Positions 56,467 to 63,744 of a stretch of DNA of 64,000 bases are shown one piece after another. The notes beneath the pieces were generated by a model. It was not told where the DNA came from, made no database searches, and saw only the letters and a list, made by a program, of their open reading frames with translations. The number at the start of each line of letters is the position of its first letter. The first letter of the stretch is position 1. Where the stretch lies: positions 100,204 to 164,203 of the forward strand of contig CAZXLF010000003.1 of NCBI GenBank assembly GCA_964642015.1. The letters are read 5' to 3'. The DNA is from an uncultured Planctomycetia bacterium (lineage in GTDB: Bacteria > Omnitrophota > Gorgyraeia > 2-02-FULL-51-18). Position numbers and translations under genes: made by a program.

Positions 56467-56844
56467 TTGGCCGACGAGCACGGAGAGCCTTCGGGATTCA
56501 GCATCAAAAAAAAAGTTGATGAGTCTTGGAAGGATAATGTAGAAAAAGAAAAAGAAACGGTCGAGCCAGGTTCTGATGAAGCTTCAAACTTCCAGCCGAA
56601 TTTTTCCTCTTTCATTACCACGCTTGGTGTTCAAGCGTTCATTGCTTTGGGCGAATTTCCATCTTCGCCTAACGGAGAAACTCCTCCGCCAGCGGACCTG
56701 GTGCAAGCCAAGTCACTCATCGATATTTTAGAGATCTTGTCCGAAAAAACCAAAGGTAACCTCACTGAAGACGAGGCCAACATGCTCCAGGAAATCCTAT
56801 ATGGCCTCAAAATGAAGTTCGTCGAAAAAAGCAGCAAGCCTTAA
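56467..56844 (+). CDS. DUF1844-like protein (conserved rpsU-adjacent small acidic protein)
   Basis: 125 aa with a TTG start, FITTLGVQAFIALGE...LVQAKSLIDILEIL. Confidence 0.55.
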   Translation: MADEHGEPSGFSIKKKVDESWKDNVEKEKETVEPGSDEASNFQPNFSSFITTLGVQAFIALGEFPSSPNGETPPPADLVQAKSLIDILEILSEKTKGNLTEDEANMLQEILYGLKMKFVEKSSKP

Positions 56845-56866
56845 TGATTAGTTCTGAGGAAAAAGC

Positions 56867-58048
56867 ATGAAAAAATATGAGAAGGTCGACCAGTTTTTCG
56901 AGCAAATAAAGACGCTGGGTTTCTGGCAGCGTATATTTAACTGGAGACCATTCCAAAAGTTAAGCTACGAGGCTTTTGAGGAATATAAAAGCCTTTTGGC
57001 CTCAGCTAACGCCTGCGAGGAACAATTAATTGCATCGAATAATAAAATTGGTTTGCTAACGAATGATAACGCTCATATTGAGAAGAAGTCATCGGAACAA
57101 CAAATAGAAATAAAGTCCATTAAAGATAGTTTTCAAAGCCTGCAAATAGAATTAAATCGAATAAAAGAAGAAAATGCTGTTTATAAGCGAACCGAAGCCG
57201 ATCGCGCCCAAGACCATGAGTCTAAGATAGACACGCTCACCACTATTACTTCCCGTGTTCAAAACGAGAGGGAAGATGAGAAGAGGCAGGCCACTGAAAG
57301 AGAGTTGCGGCGGTTGCATGATATGAAAGAAACGTGGTCTAGACATGAAGGTAGTGTAAAAGAAACAATAAAAATGATCTGTCAAAAACATACCATAACG
57401 TATGTCGATCAAGTTCCTTTCAAGGGAAAACCGGATAATACGATTCAAATATGCGAAGACTTCATCATTTTTGATGCAAAAAGTCCTATGTCTGATGATC
57501 TTGGAAATTTCCCGCAATACATCAAAAATCAGACCGAGCAAGTTAAAAAATATATTAAGGAGCAAAACGTCCGGAAAGATATATTTCTTGTAATTCCTTC
57601 GAATGCGGTACATGTCATCGATAATTTCAGCTATAACATGGCTGATTACAATGTGTATGTGGTAACCATTGATGTTCTGGAACCGCTCATTCTGGCTCTT
57701 CGAAAGATTGAAGATTATGAATTTGTTGAACAACTAACTCCCGAAGATCGGGAAAGTATCTGTCGGGTTATCGGTAAATTCGCGCATGTGACAAAAAGAA
57801 AGATTCAAATAGATCAATTTTTTACGAGAGAATTTATTAGCGTGCTTAAAAAATCTGAAGCAAATCTTCCTTCCGATATATTTGAGAAGGTATTGGAATT
57901 TGAAAAGTCAGAAAAGATCAACCCGCCTGTTGAAAAACGCGCAAAGCAAATTCTGATAAAGGATTTAGAAATCGAGGATGAGCACGTGCGGGAAGAGGTT
58001 AAGAAGCTCCCGCTCTATGAAGACAACGAAAACTTGCTCCCTTCTTAA
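56867..58048 (+). CDS. RmuC-like protein: N-terminal coiled coil plus PD-(D/E)xK nuclease-like domain
   Basis: 393 aa with a long heptad-rich region (residues ~50-150), then KPDNTIQICEDFIIFDAKSP, which resembles the RmuC PD...(D/E)xK core. Confidence 0.5.
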   Translation: MKKYEKVDQFFEQIKTLGFWQRIFNWRPFQKLSYEAFEEYKSLLASANACEEQLIASNNKIGLLTNDNAHIEKKSSEQQIEIKSIKDSFQSLQIELNRIKEENAVYKRTEADRAQDHESKIDTLTTITSRVQNEREDEKRQATERELRRLHDMKETWSRHEGSVKETIKMICQKHTITYVDQVPFKGKPDNTIQICEDFIIFDAKSPMSDDLGNFPQYIKNQTEQVKKYIKEQNVRKDIFLVIPSNAVHVIDNFSYNMADYNVYVVTIDVLEPLILALRKIEDYEFVEQLTPEDRESICRVIGKFAHVTKRKIQIDQFFTREFISVLKKSEANLPSDIFEKVLEFEKSEKINPPVEKRAKQILIKDLEIEDEHVREEVKKLPLYEDNENLLPS

Positions 58049-58211
58049 AAATCGCGAAGAACTTCCGCATCGATCATTGTTTAGATAAAATTTTTATAAA
58101 TTTATTTTGCAGTATTTCAAACTCGTTGATATACTAGCGATTGTAAGAATAATCGGCCAAGACTATTAAAAGCACTATATACTGTATATTCACAAGGGGC
58201 TTAAGCGTTTT

Positions 58212-58451
58212 ATGGACAAACTTATCGCAAGCTTCCAGAAGAACAAGTTTGAAGAAGTCCGTGTTCAAATAAAAGAGTTTAAGGGATACGACCTTCTCGA
58301 TATACGAGTATACACCACTCTTAAAGACACCGAAGACAAGATCCCGACCGGTAAAGGCCTATCGATCAATGTATCTCATTTCCAAGATCTAAAAAAAGCA
58401 ATCTTGGAGGCGGAGACGGTTTTAAGAGAAAATAATCTGCTAAATGAATAA
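58212..58451 (+). CDS. PC4/Sub1-like ssDNA-binding protein (bacterial YdbC-type)
   Basis: 79 aa. EVRVQIKEFKGYDLLDIRVY...IPTGKGLSINVSHFQDLKKAI aligns motif-for-motif with the eukaryotic PC4 C-terminal domain (FKGKxLIDIREY...KPGRKGISL...QWSQLKEQI). Confidence 0.7.
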   Translation: MDKLIASFQKNKFEEVRVQIKEFKGYDLLDIRVYTTLKDTEDKIPTGKGLSINVSHFQDLKKAILEAETVLRENNLLNE

Positions 58452-59265
58452 TATTTTTGAGTCGCTGAAAGCCGGGGTTATGGAACATCGAAAAAAAGAG
58501 GGGGAGCTGGAGAGCAGTTCTCAGAAAAAAACCCAGCACGAACTAACCCAAGAACAGCTTGCCGATATTTATTTTCCGGGTCAGGGAAAAATCAAGAAAT
58601 CAGAATATCCTACTGTCATAAAAGTCACGGAAAAATCCCGCTCCTCTTTTCTGATCCCTTGGCTCATCACTTTAGTTGCCGTAGTGATCGCGGCGTTTTG
58701 CCTTTTTTCGACTAAACGAATATTCGTGGATATCAAAGTCATCAACAACCGGGCCACATCACTTGTCTCGGAAGATAATAGCGCTGATCGGTCATCTTCT
58801 AATAGTCTATTAACGGCTCTAAGTTTGGGCGATAAACTTCCAATGCAGAATTTTGAGTTTGACGGCGCTTCTAAACTCAAAAGTTCCAAAGACCGTTCTA
58901 CCTTGACGCTGATCAATAGTTCTGTGGCGCCTTTTGCACGCGCTGTCCTCCATCTAGGAACTCCCGTGAATTTATCAGGGACCAAGATCGTTTTCTATGC
59001 AAAAGGGATGCGCGGCGGAGAGAACATAGCTTTTGCGCTGAAAGATAAAAACAATATACCCGCATTCAGCAAAAATAAGATCTACCCGTTTCCCAATGCC
59101 TTGACAACCGATTGGCAAAGGGCCGAGATCCCTTTATTCAATGCCACCAAAGAATTTGATGTAAAGAATGTGATCTGTTTACGTTTTGAATTTGGGTCAA
59201 AAGATACTGACAACAAGCCTGGGGACACGATCATGGTCAAAGATCTCCAGGTGGTGCCGCTTTAA
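58444..59265 (+). CDS. Single-pass membrane protein with ~190-aa extracytoplasmic beta-rich domain (possible carbohydrate-binding-like fold)
   Basis: 273 aa. Cytoplasmic N-terminus, TM helix LIPWLITLVAVVIAAFCLF, and an external domain with alternating hydrophobic beta-strand patterns. It overlaps the PC4-like gene by 8 nt. Confidence 0.5.
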   Translation: MNNIFESLKAGVMEHRKKEGELESSSQKKTQHELTQEQLADIYFPGQGKIKKSEYPTVIKVTEKSRSSFLIPWLITLVAVVIAAFCLFSTKRIFVDIKVINNRATSLVSEDNSADRSSSNSLLTALSLGDKLPMQNFEFDGASKLKSSKDRSTLTLINSSVAPFARAVLHLGTPVNLSGTKIVFYAKGMRGGENIAFALKDKNNIPAFSKNKIYPFPNALTTDWQRAEIPLFNATKEFDVKNVICLRFEFGSKDTDNKPGDTIMVKDLQVVPL

Positions 59266-59296
59266 TTCGAACAAGCAAAACGGAGGATATTAGAAG

Positions 59297-60379
59297 ATGC
59301 ATATTATCGCTTTGTCCAATCAAAAAGGGGGTTGCGGAAAAACGACCTCGGCCATCAATGTTGCTGCGTCTCTGGCGTCTCTTGGTAAAAGGACTTTGCT
59401 GATCGATCTAGATCCTCAAGCACACGCATCTTTCGGGTTAGGCGCGCGCAATGATAAACTTGAAAATTCGATTTATAATGTTTTGACCGAACAGACCGGT
59501 AAAAAGAAATATTTTATCGAGGATGTGATCATGCCGGTCGATACGCATCTGGATCTGGTACCTTCACATATTCTTTTGAGCACCATCGAACAGGAATACT
59601 CAAATAAAGATGAATCTGTTTCCAAGCTTTACGAAGCGCTTGCATCCCTTTCTTTTCCGTATGAGTTCGTCATCATTGATTGCCCGCCAAGCTTGGGTTT
59701 CCTTACCTTCAACGCGCTCAGGGTCGCTCAAACGGTAGTGGTACCCGTTGAGCTCAGTTCATTTTCCCTAATGGGTGTCAGCAAACTTCTGAGCATGATC
59801 GAGTTGATCCGCGTCAAGCTTCAACATACGCCGAAAGTATACGCGCTCCCGACGATGGTTGACATGAGGACCAATTTTGCCAAACACATGATCGAAGAGA
59901 TCCGCAGCGCTTTTGGCGAGAGTATTTTCAATAGCGTGATCCGTCAAACAGTTTCGGTGAAAGAATCTCAGGCGAAAGGAATCCCGGTCGTAAAATATGA
60001 CCCTAGATCGAGGGGCGCCGCCGACTATCTTATTTTAACTCAGGAAATTCTGAACAAACTGCCGAGCACTGAAGAACTGCCCGATATCAGCGGTAACGGT
60101 ACCAAAAATGGCTACCACAACCGTCTTTGCGATTTCAACCTTAAAAAAGAAGGCGTTAGGGAAGTCTATGTGGTCGGTGATTTCAATAACTGGGACGTCT
60201 CTAACAAATCTCTGCTTTGGCAGAAAGAGGACGGTGTTTGGCAGAAAAAAATAGCGCTTGAGCCGGGCCGTTACCGATACAAATTTGTCATTGATGGTGA
60301 ATGGGTGACGGACCCGACCAATCATATCCAAGAACCCAATCCGTTCGGCGGCTTAGATTCCGTTTTAGAGATCGAATAA
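59297..60379 (+). CDS. ParA/Soj-family P-loop ATPase fused to a C-terminal AMPK-beta-like glycogen-binding domain (CBM48)
   Basis: Deviant Walker A SNQKGGCGKTTSAINVA, ParA-like body to ~residue 255. The C-terminus EVYVVGDFNNWDVS...PGRYRYKFVIDGEWVTDPTN...GGLDSVLEI matches AMPK beta1 GBD (EVYLSGSFNNW...EGEHQYKFFVDGQWTHDP...NNIIQV). Confidence 0.8.
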   Translation: MHIIALSNQKGGCGKTTSAINVAASLASLGKRTLLIDLDPQAHASFGLGARNDKLENSIYNVLTEQTGKKKYFIEDVIMPVDTHLDLVPSHILLSTIEQEYSNKDESVSKLYEALASLSFPYEFVIIDCPPSLGFLTFNALRVAQTVVVPVELSSFSLMGVSKLLSMIELIRVKLQHTPKVYALPTMVDMRTNFAKHMIEEIRSAFGESIFNSVIRQTVSVKESQAKGIPVVKYDPRSRGAADYLILTQEILNKLPSTEELPDISGNGTKNGYHNRLCDFNLKKEGVREVYVVGDFNNWDVSNKSLLWQKEDGVWQKKIALEPGRYRYKFVIDGEWVTDPTNHIQEPNPFGGLDSVLEIE

Positions 60380-60391
60380 CCATTATTTTTA

Positions 60392-60937
60392 ATGTCTAAA
60401 TCAGCGAAGCTGCCTTACCGCATCATTGAGTCCCGCAGCCTTTATGCCGGTCATATTATTGAACTCGTCAAAGACCGTTTCGTATTAGGCGTTGCCCCCA
60501 ACAAAGTTGTCACACGCGAACTAGTTAAACATCCCGGCGCCGTTGTGATAGTCCCGTTCATAAAAAAAGACCGAATCCTTCTGTTAAGACAATTTCGATA
60601 CGCCGCTCAAGGAAACTTGTGGGAAATACCCGCGGGAACACTGGAAGAGGGGGAGCGTCCGATTGACTGCGCCAAAAGAGAAATAGAGGAAGAAACTGGT
60701 TTCAGAGCGAAAAGGTGGCAGCGGCTCACAAGCTTTTATCCGGCACCCGGCATAAGCAATGAAATTATGACACTTTTCAAAGCTGACCAACTTGTTGAAG
60801 GGCGAAAAAACCTTGATCATGATGAATGGATCGACCATTGTGAAGTTTCTCTGAAAACCGCAAGGCAGATGATCAAAAAAGGCCTGATACGCGACGGCAA
60901 AACGATCGCGGGCATATTATGGGTTTCAAGTTTTTGA
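60392..60937 (+). CDS. Nudix hydrolase (ADP-ribose pyrophosphatase-like)
   Basis: 181 aa, Nudix box GTLEEGERPIDCAKREIEEETG. Confidence 0.85.
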   Translation: MSKSAKLPYRIIESRSLYAGHIIELVKDRFVLGVAPNKVVTRELVKHPGAVVIVPFIKKDRILLLRQFRYAAQGNLWEIPAGTLEEGERPIDCAKREIEEETGFRAKRWQRLTSFYPAPGISNEIMTLFKADQLVEGRKNLDHDEWIDHCEVSLKTARQMIKKGLIRDGKTIAGILWVSSF

Positions 60938-61024
60938 TCAGATTTTATAATTTAGTTTAAAACCTTTTAGACAGTCCTTGATAATTCAGAGTGTAGAGCA
61001 TAAAATAAAGGTGTATGAGAGCCC

Positions 61025-61609
61025 ATGCTTAAAGAAGCCAAAATATCTTCGGTGATGTCGCTTTTCCCGCTGCCTCAATACGTTGTAGTTCTGGAGGATA
61101 TCGAAAAAACACGCCTCGTCCCGATCTGGATCGGCGTCAACGAAGGCAATGCGATAGCATTGGAGATACAAGGCGAGAAATTCCCGCGACCTCTGACACA
61201 TGATCTGATGGCAAATATCATAAAAGAAATGGGCGCTCAAATCGAGAAAGTTGTCGTCAGCGACCTGAAAGATAACAGCTATTACGCTTTGATCTATATC
61301 AAACAGAATGGAAAGACTTGGGAAATAGATGCGCGTCCTTCGGATTCGCTGGCTTTGGCCGTGCGCGTTCAATGTCCCATATATATTGATGAAAAGGTTT
61401 TGGACAAATGTCCTCAGATCGACCGCCCGATCACACAGGAAGAGATAGAAAAATTCAAGGAGGATCTGAAAAAAATGTCCCCTGAGGAATTTTTTAAATC
61501 ATTGGAAGAAGCGCCTTCCGCCGAAGAACCGCATCTAGGGACCGAATTCGGAGAAGATCCCGACGAAGAAGACAATGAAGAGGATGATGATCAAGAAGAA
61601 AATCAGTGA
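61025..61609 (+). CDS. DUF151 'bifunctional nuclease' (BFN) domain protein with polyacidic C-terminal tail
   Basis: 194 aa, LVPIWIGVNEGNAIALEIQG...RPLTHDL...IDARPSDSLALAVR. The C-terminal 40 aa are D/E-rich (EDPDEEDNEEDDDQEENQ). Confidence 0.75.
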   Translation: MLKEAKISSVMSLFPLPQYVVVLEDIEKTRLVPIWIGVNEGNAIALEIQGEKFPRPLTHDLMANIIKEMGAQIEKVVVSDLKDNSYYALIYIKQNGKTWEIDARPSDSLALAVRVQCPIYIDEKVLDKCPQIDRPITQEEIEKFKEDLKKMSPEEFFKSLEEAPSAEEPHLGTEFGEDPDEEDNEEDDDQEENQ

Positions 61610-61647
61610 ATAACGATTTAATCATATCAACTACACGGAGGCGCCTG

Positions 61648-62028
61648 ATGCAAAGCACTTGGATTAAGTTTCTGATCGTAGGAAGTTTCATAATGTTTCT
61701 TGCGGGTTTCAAATCAGCCTGGGCGTCTGACGCTCCGGTAGCCCCAACAGATAATGTAGATTATGGCACTGGTGTAGGCAAGAAATTGGGTCGGGGCATA
61801 TCCAACGTGGCATTCGGATGGCTTGAAATTCCGAAAGGCGTCGAAGATGTCGGGGATAAAAATAATTTTATAGCCGCAGCGACTTGGGGGCCGATTTATG
61901 GCGCAGGAAAAGCCGCCGTAAGAACTTTGGCGGGCGCTTATGAAATCGCGACTTTTCCAGTTCCGTGGCCTAAAAATTTTGAACCACTGGTACAACCCGA
62001 GTTTATGCTCGGAGATAGCTGGCAATAA
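61648..62028 (+). CDS. Small membrane/exported protein (126 aa); possibly TIGR04073-like 'exosortase-associated' family
   Basis: GGAGG ribosome-binding site 7 nt upstream. N-terminal TM/signal IKFLIVGSFIMFLAGF, then KKLGRGISNVAFGWLEIPKG. The family assignment is from memory only. Confidence 0.45.
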   Translation: MQSTWIKFLIVGSFIMFLAGFKSAWASDAPVAPTDNVDYGTGVGKKLGRGISNVAFGWLEIPKGVEDVGDKNNFIAAATWGPIYGAGKAAVRTLAGAYEIATFPVPWPKNFEPLVQPEFMLGDSWQ

Positions 62029-62079
62029 GCATCCTATCCCTCCTTTTGAAGAAACGTATAATATAATTAAGGGTGCTTT

Positions 62080-63744
62080 ATGAAGGATCGTACGGGCATC
62101 ACTAAATACGAAATCAGTCAAACGTCAGCCCCTGAGAATAGTCTTACGCCTTTGAACGAAATTCTGAGCGAAGAAGCAAGGTTGCTGTCTCCTTTAACAG
62201 AAAATCTGGCTATCAACTGGGCCGAACTTTATCTCAACACGTTTGGCCGAAGCGCTTTCTTCTCCTCGCAGCGTGTCCATAAAATCTTTAAAGAACTGGT
62301 CGAACTTTTTGTGGCTTGTCTTCAGGAAAAACGTCATGATCTATACATGGCGAATCTAGAGGAAAAAGGCCTCGCTTTTTCTCGGTTAGGAGTTCCATTC
62401 GATGAGATCATTATTTCTTTGCATCTTTTTGAACAAGTCTGCGCCGACTCTTTGTTTAATTCGCAGATACCTCATACAAAATCTGCAAAAATGATGCTGG
62501 CTATGCGGGAGATCCACAATCAAGGTCTGGCAGCGCTTGCGGTCAGTTATTTCGAAAACACCAAAAATGAGATGCAATCCATCACAGATGGCTTACTCGA
62601 AGAAAATGCTTCTTTAAAAAAGGAGCTAGCCGAAGCTAAGGATTTTTTGCTTGCGCAGACCATGAAAGAATTAGATTCCATGCAGTTGGTGATCAGCGGC
62701 ATCAATCACAAACTCCGCCGCCGCGTTTATCAGCTGGGGCGGCTGCAGAAAATCAGCGAGGTCTTGGACGGAGAAGCTCATCTGCCAAAACTCATGAAGA
62801 TGGCCTCCCATCAAATGTTGGCGCTTTGTCCGGAAAATTCCAATCTTTTTTTTGCGTTCTTTGACGAAGAGAGAAAAAAGGTCAATGTCTATCATCAGGA
62901 ATCAAGGTCCAGCTCCCAATGCGATCTCATCAAAACCTTTTTTTTCTCTGAACTGCCTAAAGCGTTCCAAGACGCATTGTACGACGAAAACAAAAAACAC
63001 GGGCATTTTAACAACTATGAAAACATGCCTGCGGAGCTCTTGGATGTTTTTGCTGTAAAAAATCAGAGGGATTTCCTGCTTACACCGATCCGCCAGTACA
63101 GGGATGTGGTCGGATTTCTGCTGCTTGGGGTGCCGGTGGAAAACCTTTTCTCAAAGAATAATTACAAATTTTTCCAACGTGTCGGACAAGCGCTATCCAA
63201 AGCCATTGCAAACGCGCTTATTTTTACGAAGTCTAAACAACGGGATGATTTTGAACTGATCCTTGACCAGCTCAACAGAAAGAAAATCGGCGGCGGCTCT
63301 GTGGAAACAGTTCTTGATTTCTGTCTGGGCTCTCTGATAGATCTTTTAGGCGTCGAGCGTTCATCGCTGATGCGCTATCATGAAGACCAAAAAGAATTGC
63401 GCGTATGCGCAGCCAAAGGTTACAAAGTCTATCCCATCTCAGGGGCTCAGATCAAATGGGGAGAAGGGATCGCGGGGACAGCGCTCAGGGACGGCAAGAT
63501 CATTTCGATCGCAAAAATGAAAGACGCCAAAACTTACAAACAGCCCGAAGTCAAAGTTAAATCGCTTCTATGCGTACCGCTTATTGACCAGAATAAGCCC
63601 CTAGGCGTTGTGAACATGTCAACGATCAATTACTACAAAAATTTTGAGAAATCTGATATCGAAATGGCCCATCATGTCATCAACCGCATGGCGGATATCC
63701 TGAAAGAGCTCACCGGCAACCCATCAAGCCCGCCTAATCTGTGA
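62080..63744 (+). CDS. Multi-domain sensor protein: N-terminal helical sensor-like domain, coiled coil, two GAF-like domains, no recognisable output domain
   Basis: 554 aa. The C-terminal region LLGVERSSLMRY...IKWGEGIAGTA...LCVPLIDQNKPLGVVN is a typical GAF. An earlier GAF-like segment spans ~300-380. Confidence 0.6.
   Translation: MKDRTGITKYEISQTSAPENSLTPLNEILSEEARLLSPLTENLAINWAELYLNTFGRSAFFSSQRVHKIFKELVELFVACLQEKRHDLYMANLEEKGLAFSRLGVPFDEIIISLHLFEQVCADSLFNSQIPHTKSAKMMLAMREIHNQGLAALAVSYFENTKNEMQSITDGLLEENASLKKELAEAKDFLLAQTMKELDSMQLVISGINHKLRRRVYQLGRLQKISEVLDGEAHLPKLMKMASHQMLALCPENSNLFFAFFDEERKKVNVYHQESRSSSQCDLIKTFFFSELPKAFQDALYDENKKHGHFNNYENMPAELLDVFAVKNQRDFLLTPIRQYRDVVGFLLLGVPVENLFSKNNYKFFQRVGQALSKAIANALIFTKSKQRDDFELILDQLNRKKIGGGSVETVLDFCLGSLIDLLGVERSSLMRYHEDQKELRVCAAKGYKVYPISGAQIKWGEGIAGTALRDGKIISIAKMKDAKTYKQPEVKVKSLLCVPLIDQNKPLGVVNMSTINYYKNFEKSDIEMAHHVINRMADILKELTGNPSSPPNL

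Follow-up and report, generated by a model that had tools for sequence, protein, structure and literature searches.

A widespread family of ParA-type ATPases with a C-terminal CBM48 module and its possible connection with bacterial alpha-glucan

The DNA analysed here (a stretch of 64,000 nucleotides, or 64 kb, referred to below as the window) carries four consecutive open reading frames on the + strand, at 58212-58451, 58444-59265, 59297-60379 and 60392-60937. The first two overlap by 8 nt (ATGAATAA), and gaps of 31 nt and 12 nt follow; coordinates and spacing agree with a first-pass annotation of the same DNA. The third frame encodes a 360-aa fusion of a ParA-type ATPase with a CBM48 domain (ParA-CBM48), which is the subject of this report. 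The features are as follows.

58106..58153, + strand: promoter-like sigma-70 sites (consensus matches only) in the 163-nt gap 5' of the PC4-like gene
58212..58451, + strand: PC4-like ssDNA-binding protein, 79 aa (PF02229, E 5.5e-11)
58444..59265, + strand: single-pass membrane protein, 273 aa, directly upstream of ParA-CBM48
59297..60061, + strand: ParA/Soj-type deviant Walker A ATPase domain, residues 1-255 of the 360-aa fusion
60062..60121, + strand: flexible linker of ParA-CBM48, residues 256-275, low pLDDT
60122..60379, + strand: CBM48/AMPK-beta-type glycogen-binding domain, residues 276-360 (C-terminal), with the stop codon
60392..60937, + strand: ADP-sugar/ADP-ribose-type Nudix hydrolase, 181 aa (NUDIX, E 6.6e-20)

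The sigma-70-like pairs before the PC4-like gene are TTTGCA-18-TATACT (with TG) and TTGATA-16-AATAAT, and they possibly mark the start of the transcription unit. Promoter-like matches upstream of this gene are not enriched (18 against 14.2 expected from shuffles); since neither the promoter nor the terminator scans gave counts above the shuffled expectation, the operon boundaries are only suggestive. Rfam and tRNA scans detected no RNA element in or near the block, and two tRNAs lie elsewhere in the window.

The block had been described as a four-gene operon. What stands of this description is a two-gene core: the membrane protein lies directly upstream of ParA-CBM48 in 9/9 loci of its Omnitrophota subfamily, and this pair is the conserved unit. 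The PC4-like and Nudix genes are not fixed members but frequent, dispensable neighbours, each present in five of the seven close loci. The former occupies position -2 (it is missing from L001 and L011) and the latter +1, where an M48 peptidase is found instead in L003 and L013. The PC4-like match exceeds the gathering score (42 bits, cutoff 25, Pfam PF02229); the nearest NCBIfam models of the Nudix protein are YffH/AdpP (75.7 bits, under the 79.55 cutoff), NudE, NudK and ADP-ribose diphosphatase.

The assignment of residues 1-255 to the ParA/Soj-type ATPases is borne out by Pfam (AAA_31 at 1-176, E 1e-50; CbiA at 4-231). Walker A reads NQKGGCGKTT (N8-Q-K10-G-G-C-G-K15-T-T) and keeps both lysines, K10 and K15. 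The signature lysine, the Walker A lysine, the Walker A' aspartates and the Walker B aspartate do not vary in sets of 144 and 52 diverse sequences; the deviant Walker A with its signature lysine, the Walker A'/B aspartates and the overall fold place the protein in the ParA/MinD superfamily. The closest solved structures are chromosomal Soj/ParA proteins (~38-40% identity), and the AlphaFold model of the fusion (mean pLDDT 87.5) is confident over the ParA domain. At the sequence level, the N-terminal domain is thereby confirmed as a Soj-like ParA ATPase with all catalytic residues. The residues required for ATP-dependent dimerisation and partner-stimulated hydrolysis are present, and both activities may be expected. 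The family has a P-loop signature of its own, KGGCGKT, which is invariant including the Cys.

Non-specific DNA binding involves a patch formed by K199/K227/K230/K247 in H. pylori Soj and by R189/R215/R218 in B. subtilis Soj (PMC6393308). R191 of the fusion, corresponding to B. subtilis R189, varies little or not at all across the family, and the equivalents of H. pylori K199, K230 and K247 are K/R in ~40-75% of the sequences. No sequence of the family has a basic residue at the K227 equivalent (Q in the 360-aa fusion), and a near-invariant, family-specific K/R is found at position 222. DNA binding by ParA-CBM48 may have been retained; nucleoid binding is uncertain because K227 is at the core of the Soj patch. 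The conserved G47-L48 corresponds to L50-G51, which lies in the loop with which H. pylori ParA binds the N-terminal peptide of ParB.

The C-terminal module had been proposed to be of the CBM48/AMPK-beta type, and several lines of evidence agree. AMPK1_CBM (PF16561) matches residues 285-359 with E 2.5e-13 (50.4 bits, cutoff 26.8), and CBM_48 (PF02922) is also above threshold (23.6, cutoff 22.4). The segments FNNW and YKFxxDGxWxxDP and the terminal strand align with the glycogen-binding domains (GBDs) of AMPK beta2/beta1 (phmmer against PDB, E 1e-8 to 3e-7). In the AlphaFold model, residues 276-360 are all-beta with pLDDT ~90 and form the beta-sandwich fold of the CBM48 family. The residues of AMPK beta1 which we take to contact the sugar in the beta1 GBD-cyclodextrin structure, W100, K126, W133, L146 and N150, correspond to W299, K329, W336, F350 and D354 of the fusion. 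The glucan-binding aromatic and lysine residues are thus present, and they are conserved across the family: W299 in 100%, K/R at 329 in 100%, W336 in 94-100%, and F/Y at position 350 in most sequences. Position 354 is N or D in 90-99% (47/52 and 143/144 family sequences). The best sequence and fold matches of the domain are the glycan-binding CBM48s of pullulanase, amylase and SEX4. The CBM48 models match, and the sugar-binding residues and Walker A lysines, the loss of which the first-pass annotation had named as fatal to its proposal, are all in place. We presume that residues 276-360 bind glycogen or another alpha-glucan.

At the AMPK N150 position, the 360-aa fusion itself has Asp in place of Asn, which counts against the glycan-binding reading.

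Between the two domains, pLDDT falls below 50 at 259-263 and 265-274, within a disordered stretch of ~20 residues. The linkers of the family, in which A, E, P and S are abundant, have a median length of 45 residues (range 0 to 356); CBM48 is always at the extreme C-terminus, with a median of 1 residue after the domain. Such a position behind a disordered linker of very variable length is what one would expect of a tether and not of a docked domain.

The architecture is not an unusual one among known sequences. It is found in 139 of the best 150 cluster representatives, PF16561 is found in 119 of the best 120 homologues, and all of the best 80 of 393 genome matches (species level) are full-length ParA-CBM48 fusions from >12 phylum-level lineages. 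ParA-CBM48 is a large, widespread and uncharacterised family, not a rare one. Its named members are MAG proteins with the generic labels "AAA family ATPase" or "chromosome partitioning protein"; cluster look-ups for 20 diverse representatives returned MAG entries with generic names only and no characterised or cultured member. The remark of the first-pass annotation that it knew of no characterised case agrees with the open-access full text, in which we found no paper on the ParA/MinD family together with glycogen or CBM48.

The upstream protein was correctly recognised as a single-pass protein with a beta-rich outer domain: the AlphaFold model has a helix at 70-88 and pLDDT >90 over ~130-273. 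It consists of an N-tail (1-68), a transmembrane helix (~69-89), a disordered spacer and an extracytoplasmic jelly roll (~130-273). What was missed is the kind of outer domain, which, judged from the model, is a CBM30/CBM4/CBM11-like jelly roll: Foldseek against PDB gives CBM30 as the best match (1wzx, E 9e-8), along with CBM4-2, CBM11 and CBM16. The Pfam CBM30 match is weak (E 8e-5, below the cutoff). An external CBM-like jelly roll complicates a purely cytoplasmic granule story, and a model of this kind leaves unexplained the external domain of the Omnitrophota partner, which resembles a beta-glucan-type CBM.

The N-tail contains the conserved motifs MSK[IL]IE[AS]L[KR], TQEQLADIYFS and K.KKSE.P.VIKV.EK; in the second of these, Q36, L39, Y43 and F44 are invariant in 118 sequences. 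A second Omnitrophota subfamily has a homologous membrane protein at -1 in 20/21 loci, and the beta-domains of the -1 proteins of the two subfamilies are related with an hhalign probability of 85% (E 6e-6). The membrane protein is most likely the cognate ParA partner in this Omnitrophota lineage, with the cytoplasmic N-tail as the candidate contact; it is gene adjacency and tail conservation that point to this role.

In the other phyla, the partners are cytoplasmic proteins, and a conserved membrane protein is absent. At least 25 loci have a +1 protein with an N-terminal LGRGL-type, ParB-like peptide (LGRGLEDVSHLFLS); the partner proteins are otherwise diverse and include CbiA/ParA-like P-loop proteins, RodZ_C plus HTH, AAA_22 and unknowns. 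An N-terminal Lys/Arg of ParB has a role in ParA activation (PMC11229316). The partner proteins may act as activators of the ATPase.

It was tempting to consider "LADIYF" of the membrane protein as a variant of the "LEDVSHLFLS" peptide; we rejected this, as an HMM built from 23 of the partner peptides (LGRGLEDVSHLFLS) scores the tails of the membrane protein no higher than shuffled ones.

Concerning alpha-glucan metabolism, GH57, GlgB or DUF4912 genes lie <=6 kb from the fusion in 15/87 loci, in four different arrangements: GH57 at -2 in 11 Omnitrophota loci; DUF4912 and a GH57 branching enzyme downstream in L007 and L018; a GH57 branching enzyme and DUF4912 near L029; and GlgB near L051. These genes occur in specific lineages only. 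The window around the 59297-60379 fusion contains no glycogen genes, apart from two lineages, most loci lack them over a distance of 6 kb, and a Pfam scan of 253 proteins encoded beside the fusion in loci that belong to neither Omnitrophota subfamily shows no broad glycogen-gene enrichment. Genes for glycogen synthesis are common in Omnitrophota MAGs (PMC8542988). An alpha-glucan as the substance held by ParA-CBM48 has indirect support, because the glycan-site residues are conserved across phyla and because GH57/GlgB/DUF4912 genes adjoin family members in four arrangements; we consider it a plausible assignment.

We therefore favour, tentatively and at somewhat less than an even chance, an orphan ParA system whose own CBM serves to tether or position granules of alpha-glucan. 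In this proposal, the N-terminal domain would be a Soj-like ATP-dependent dimerisation switch, probably still nucleoid-binding, and the CBM48 trailing each subunit on its flexible linker would bind alpha-1,4/1,6-glucan (glycogen). The ATP-bound dimer would then present two glycan-binding modules and one DNA-binding face, and could anchor glycogen particles on the nucleoid and distribute them along its length. ATP hydrolysis and release would be triggered by a partner; in this Omnitrophota lineage it would most likely be the upstream membrane protein, acting through its cytoplasmic N-tail, and in other phyla the downstream LGRGLEDVSHLFLS-peptide protein. Granule positioning would be the presumed outcome. 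Among the points against it is the placing of the activator: in classic ParA systems, the activator sits on the cargo and not on the ATPase, and a ParA which is itself fixed to the cargo would make a regulated tether more than a ratchet motor. The most general form of the proposal, in which ParA-CBM48 is an unrecognised, widespread system actively organising glycogen granules and is wired in Omnitrophota to a membrane protein whose external domain resembles a glycan-binding one, we consider doubtful at present.

The membrane partner also allows for a different reading, to which we assign a low probability: an envelope polysaccharide machine instead of a storage granule. The ParA would be recruited to, or would position, the membrane protein together with its ligand beyond the cell membrane, and CBM48 would hold a cytoplasmic alpha-glucan, as substrate or product, nearby, by analogy with BcsQ organising cellulose secretion or with the membrane modulators paired with BY-kinases. 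The one neighbour that is invariant in Omnitrophota is indeed this membrane protein with its CBM30/CBM4/CBM11-like external jelly roll; in the second subfamily, 14 loci have an AlgE-like "Alginate_exp" outer-membrane barrel at -3, beside GH57; the ATPase weakly matches BcsQ and BY-kinase models, and BcsQ is among its structural neighbours. However, the block in the window has no synthase or export gene, the 360-aa protein has no C-terminal tyrosine cluster, and the cytoplasmic partners with ParB-like peptides in other phyla, where no membrane protein is conserved, do not fit. It is also conceivable, although improbable, that the CBM48-fold domain is a protein-interaction or regulatory module and that the variable partner proteins define the cargo, cytoplasmic or membrane. 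The AMPK beta CBM also acts in protein interaction, docking on the kinase domain, and CBM48-like domains occur in non-glycan contexts (e.g., a weak match to a T9SS plug model); the great diversity of the partners and the absence of a glycogen gene near most loci would be natural under this explanation. Against it, the residues kept across >12 phyla are precisely the AMPK beta sugar contacts (two Trp, Lys/Arg, Asn/Asp), the best matches are glycan-binding CBM48s, and the domain recurs beside branching-enzyme genes in four arrangements.

The annotation used by JGI, which names many members "chromosome partitioning protein", amounts to a plain Soj whose accessory domain has no effect on its job. 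The identity to chromosomal Soj/ParA structures and the retained B. subtilis R189 equivalent are in its favour; we nevertheless consider it very improbable. A tblastn search with B. subtilis Spo0J found no ParB in the window or in 90 loci, no GERRxRA box was found, and the window contains no parS at <=2 mismatches; the chromosomal ParABS reading was rejected on these grounds. Conserved beside the fusion are either a membrane protein or proteins other than ParB that have only a short ParB-like peptide, and the invariant KGGCGKT signature is the family's own. Myxococcota, Planctomycetota and Desulfobacterota have canonical ParABS; ParA-CBM48 occurs in all three, and would be an extra paralogue there.

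ParA/MinD ATPases are a general bacterial means of placing chromosomes, plasmids, carboxysomes, chemoreceptor arrays, flagella and division sites, and glycogen is among the commonest bacterial storage polymers. To our knowledge, nothing has been reported on the active positioning or inheritance of bacterial glycogen granules. If the tethering proposal is true, the family would provide the first known case of a ParA/MinD ATPase whose cargo is held directly by a carbohydrate-binding module fused to it, and polysaccharide stores would gain their first described partitioning system; in Omnitrophota, the membrane protein would couple the placing or mobilising of the glycogen store to the envelope. 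Occurring in hundreds of species of many phyla, the family is a concrete, testable candidate for glycogen positioning, and the invariant Trp residues, the LGRGLEDVSHLFLS partner peptide (other phyla) and the membrane-protein tail (Omnitrophota) offer experimental handles. Should glycan binding fail, the family would still be a large, unassigned branch of orphan ParA systems.

Among known systems, BcsQ and the BY-kinase/modulator pairs resemble the Omnitrophota locus in that a ParA/MinD-fold P-loop protein works with a component in the membrane and polysaccharide is involved; in Gram-positive bacteria, the gene for the membrane modulator immediately precedes that for the cytoplasmic P-loop protein of the BY-kinase system. 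The similarity is weak (BcsQ E 2e-10; eps_fam E 5e-7), with both NCBIfam scores sub-threshold (BcsQ 72.5 bits, cutoff 157.9; eps_fam 29.5, cutoff 108), and the locus has no bcs or cps genes, no PilZ and, as mentioned above, no synthase, export gene or Tyr cluster. With Soj/ParA (T. thermophilus Soj 1WCV/2BEK, H. pylori Soj 6IUB/8JMJ, ParA 8RAY), the family has in common the deviant Walker A, the signature lysine, the Walker A'/B aspartates, the R189 equivalent and the G47-L48 ParB-peptide loop. It differs from them in the lack of nearby ParB/parS, the additional linker and C-terminal CBM48, the invariant P-loop Cys, the non-basic K227 equivalent and the near-invariant K/R222. The CBM48 shares its fold and the Trp, Lys, Trp and Asn positions with the AMPK beta GBD and the CBM48s of SEX4, pullulanases and branching enzymes; here it is joined to a ParA ATPase and not to a kinase scaffold, phosphatase or glycoside hydrolase.

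MinD likewise has a surface-binding element at the extreme C-terminus of a ParA/MinD-fold ATPase, and the architecture suggests that ATP-driven dimerisation, by doubling the CBM48 valency, could act as an avidity switch. The element of MinD is a short amphipathic helix, whereas that of ParA-CBM48 is an 85-residue folded CBM on a long linker; the sequence is much closer to Soj (MinD models are far below the cutoffs), the protein has no C-terminal membrane-targeting helix, and the locus has no min genes (MinC/MinE). Every ParA/MinD positioning system that we know of or could find uses an adaptor on the cargo. In McdA/McdB (carboxysome), ParC/ParP and PpfA, the cargo adaptor both recruits and activates the ATPase; in ParA-CBM48, the putative cargo module is fused and the partner is separate, so that the design would follow a different logic, in which the cargo is bound in cis and activation is left to another protein.

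The four open reading frames of the first-pass annotation stand on the forward strand where it had placed them, with the spacing it described (an 8-nt overlap, ATGAATAA, then gaps of 31 and 12 nt); they are listed here with two neighbours.

56867-58048: 393-aa coiled-coil protein, in the place of RmuC (PF02646) in relatives
58212-58451, + strand: 79 aa, PC4-like protein (Pfam PC4, E 5.5e-11)
58444-59265, + strand: 273 aa, single-pass membrane protein
59297-60379, + strand: 360 aa, ParA-CBM48
60392-60937, + strand: 181 aa, Nudix hydrolase (Pfam NUDIX, E 6.6e-20)
61606-62028: TIGR04073 exosortase-system-associated protein (86.6 bits vs a cutoff of 50)

The fusion itself is borne out: the 360-aa protein matches Pfam AAA_31 (residues 1-176, E 1e-50) and CbiA, followed by AMPK1_CBM at 285-359 (50.4 bits vs a gathering score of 26.8) and CBM_48 (23.6 vs 22.4). 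The CBM match, the sugar-binding aromatic residues and the Walker A lysine, whose loss had been named as counting against this reading, are all present. The sugar-contacting positions of AMPK beta1, which we take to be W100, K126, W133, L146 and N150, correspond to W299, K329, W336, F350 and D354 of the query; family-wide, these are W (100%), K or R (100%), W (94-100%), mostly F or Y, and N or D. Surface aromatics conserved in different phyla speak for a ligand site that the CBM48 domain has kept. The domain lies at the extreme C-terminus in all members (a median of 1 residue beyond it), and the linker before it is disordered in the structural model (pLDDT below 50), rich in A, E, P and S, and of 0 to about 356 residues across the family (median 45), which is what a flexible tether would look like. 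A stand-alone 106-aa AMPK1_CBM protein, with 34% identity to the query CBM, is encoded divergently upstream of the ParA-CBM48 gene at one locus (L009:6093-6413, - strand).

The first-pass annotation knew of no characterised example of this architecture, which is not rare among sequences. Of the 150 best matches among representatives of clusters at 50% identity, 139 combine a ParA domain with a single C-terminal CBM, and the remainder are 8 plain ParAs and 3 giant proteins made solely of tandem CBM48 repeats; PF16561 is present in 119 of the 120 best homologues. The giants (P0121, 1812 aa; P0157, 1409 aa; P0214, 1436 aa) carry 7 to 17 CBM48-like repeats and have no ParA domain. An identical protein sits on a 294.6-kb contig of an NCBI assembly, and close relatives (64-84% identity) carry the label Candidatus Omnitrophica/Omnitrophota. 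A species-level scan, with one genome per species, found at least 393 relatives, the best 80 of which match at full or near-full length, a few being shortened by contig ends. By depositors' MAG labels, whose reliability is limited by binning, these best 80 are drawn from Omnitrophota, Planctomycetota (Phycisphaerae, Pirellulales, Tepidisphaerales, Sedimentisphaerales), Myxococcota, Desulfobacterota/Thermodesulfobacteriota, Rokubacteria, Gemmatimonadales, Eisenbacteria, Krumholzibacteriia, Auribacter, Margulisiibacteriota, Acidobacteriota, Gammaproteobacteria (Thiogranum) and Spirochaetaceae. Further members come from Nitrospirota/Leptospirillia and Schekmanbacteria; a "Methanobacteriota" contig of 3 kb was probably misbinned. 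All named members are MAG proteins titled "AAA family ATPase" or "chromosome partitioning protein", and no open-access full text was found that connects glycogen or CBM48 with an ATPase of the ParA/MinD type (subscription papers may be missed). The architecture is therefore common yet, as far as we could find, unstudied.

The P-loop sequence is KGGCGKT (window 59321-59344, residues 9-16), with Cys in 144/144 and 50/52 sequences at the position where canonical ParA and MinD carry Val (KGGVGKT); KGGCGKT is a family signature. Residues that bind DNA in H. pylori and B. subtilis Soj, as described in PMC6393308, were transferred onto the family by HMMER alignment. R191, the equivalent of B. subtilis Soj R189, is invariant or nearly so, and a new K/R at position 222 almost invariant; the equivalents of H. 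pylori Soj K199, K230 and K247 are basic in about 40-75% of members, and that of K227 in none (Gln in the query). Given this mixed conservation, nucleoid binding seems plausible but not secure.

The window locus lies in a co-directional housekeeping region (his, trp, heme biosynthesis, GroEL, tRNA synthetases and two tRNAs); throughout window 1-64000 the + strand carries all credible genes and GC skew stays positive. In six non-redundant close relatives the genes run in one common order, TilS - S21 - (DUF1844) - RmuC - (PC4) - membrane protein - ParA-CBM48 - (Nudix) - (M48 peptidase) - SNase - BFN nuclease - ... - GAF - UvrD. The proposed four-gene operon is not conserved as a whole: with the window included, PC4 and Nudix each occur in 5/7 close loci, and the membrane protein, directly upstream of ParA-CBM48 in 7/7 (3-31 nt, where measured), is the sole invariant neighbour. 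The functional core is therefore this gene pair rather than the block of four. The same upstream membrane protein is found in two remoter loci (49-51% ParA identity). Promoter-like sites occur on both sides of the block, in a region no richer in them than its shuffles.

The synteny around the pair (window 56467-63744; relatives L001, L003 and L005) has a DNA-metabolism flavour in relatives (RmuC, the PC4-like ssDNA binder, SNase, the BFN bifunctional nuclease, UvrD helicase), which may be plain conserved synteny and not a functional link. The 393-aa coiled-coil protein gave no Pfam match and no tblastn match to relatives at 1e-5; it contains "IIFDAKSP", resembling a PD-(D/E)xK nuclease motif, and may be a very divergent RmuC. 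Relatives have conserved the TIGR04073 gene, downstream of that for the BFN nuclease.

The membrane protein has only 166 detectable homologues; nearly all of those with taxon labels come from MAGs of Omnitrophota type, one bearing the label Eisenbacteria, and those annotated are all named hypothetical. It is modelled with a cytoplasmic N-terminal tail, one TM helix (70-88), a disordered spacer and a jelly-roll at about 130-273 (pLDDT above 90) that by structure comes closest to carbohydrate-binding modules, namely CBM30, CBM4-2, CBM11 and CBM16 (Foldseek E 1e-7 to 1e-5). Three motifs are conserved in the tail: MSK[IL]IE[AS]L[KR]; [HY]E[LM]TQEQLADIYFS, with four residues invariant in 118 sequences; and K.KKSE.P.VIKV.EK. 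Conservation this strong in a short tail implies a cytoplasmic binding partner, for which the co-conserved ParA-CBM48 is the obvious candidate.

In a second Omnitrophota subfamily (38-44% ParA identity), 20/21 loci have a protein of about 190 aa directly upstream, built to the same plan: an N-terminal EIYEHLAKIYLD motif, a Lys-rich segment ahead of the TM helix, which places the N-terminus inside, and a beta domain homologous to that of the first family (profile-profile probability 85%, E 6e-6). These loci also show a Lys-rich histone-H1-like protein (about 130-220 aa) 1-2 genes downstream of ParA-CBM48 in 16 loci (L020:7103-7507, L021, L027, L044:2766-3422 and about 12 more), a DUF4870 membrane protein directly downstream in 12, and an AlgE-like "Alginate_exp" outer-membrane barrel three genes upstream in 14.

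For other phyla, it is the protein encoded directly downstream that carries an N-terminal peptide, of consensus K-x-LGRGLEDVSHLFLS; a strict pattern finds it in at least 25 loci, in that position each time. Its LGRGL core resembles the N-terminal ParB peptide, such as GLGRGLEALL in T. thermophilus Spo0J. The Lys/Arg of the ParB peptide stimulates the ParA ATPase (PMC11229316). Beyond the peptide these partners differ widely, with CbiA/ParA-like P-loop domains, RodZ_C plus HTH, AAA_22, or no domain that could be recognised. A ParA is followed by a ParA-like partner with the peptide at L007:8101-9030, L029:4476-5462 and L049:3339-4277, some of these partners being apparently degenerate. A third arrangement has a prepilin-type (N_methyl) pilin-like gene directly upstream of ParA-CBM48 (L007:6444-6854, a PVC-group MAG; L010:6295-6699, a metagenome contig). 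We dropped the idea of a peptide shared with the Omnitrophota membrane tails: the partner-peptide profile scores the tails no better than shuffled controls, so at most an analogy links the two partner types.

Alpha-glucan genes lie near ParA-CBM48 in 15/87 non-redundant loci, in four distinct arrangements; we estimate a chance expectation of about 1-2% of loci, given a handful of such genes per genome. A GH57 enzyme is encoded two genes upstream in 11 second-subfamily Omnitrophota loci, which are a single evolutionary event; L007 and L018 have a DUF4912 protein and a GH57 branching enzyme downstream, L029 has both nearby, and L051 has GlgB two genes off. Pfam scans of 253 other neighbour proteins revealed no broad alpha-glucan enrichment, and no alpha-glucan gene was found in the window. 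Glycogen synthesis is commonly encoded by Omnitrophota MAGs (PMC8542988). The adjoining Nudix protein is of the ADP-sugar/ADP-ribose type, and overexpression of E. coli AspP, of the same type, lowers glycogen (PMC2853380); by this analogy a tie to glycogen is a lead only.

We tentatively favour, as a reading that may well hold though we would not call it probable, that the ATP-bound dimer would hold the nucleoid and grip glycogen particles through its two tethered CBM48 modules, and that a partner tail or peptide would set off hydrolysis and so release, leaving the glycogen store tethered and distributed under regulation. The CBM48 takes the place of the membrane helix of MinD, so that by analogy dimerisation could be an avidity switch for glucan binding. 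The external, CBM-like part of the Omnitrophota partner has no explanation in this granule-tethering model. A role in envelope polysaccharides, with that membrane partner at its centre, seems unlikely, if worth keeping in mind; we consider it improbable that the CBM fold serves protein interaction and not glycan binding. That we deal with an ordinary chromosome-partitioning ParA is hardly credible: a ParB homologue was found neither in the window nor in any of 90 loci, and no parS in the 64-kb window.

Classic ParA systems have the activator on the cargo, and the design of the proposed glycogen-tethering dimer differs from this. We rate ParA-CBM48 as a recognisable ParA system in which putative cargo binding is fused in cis and the partner types are new.
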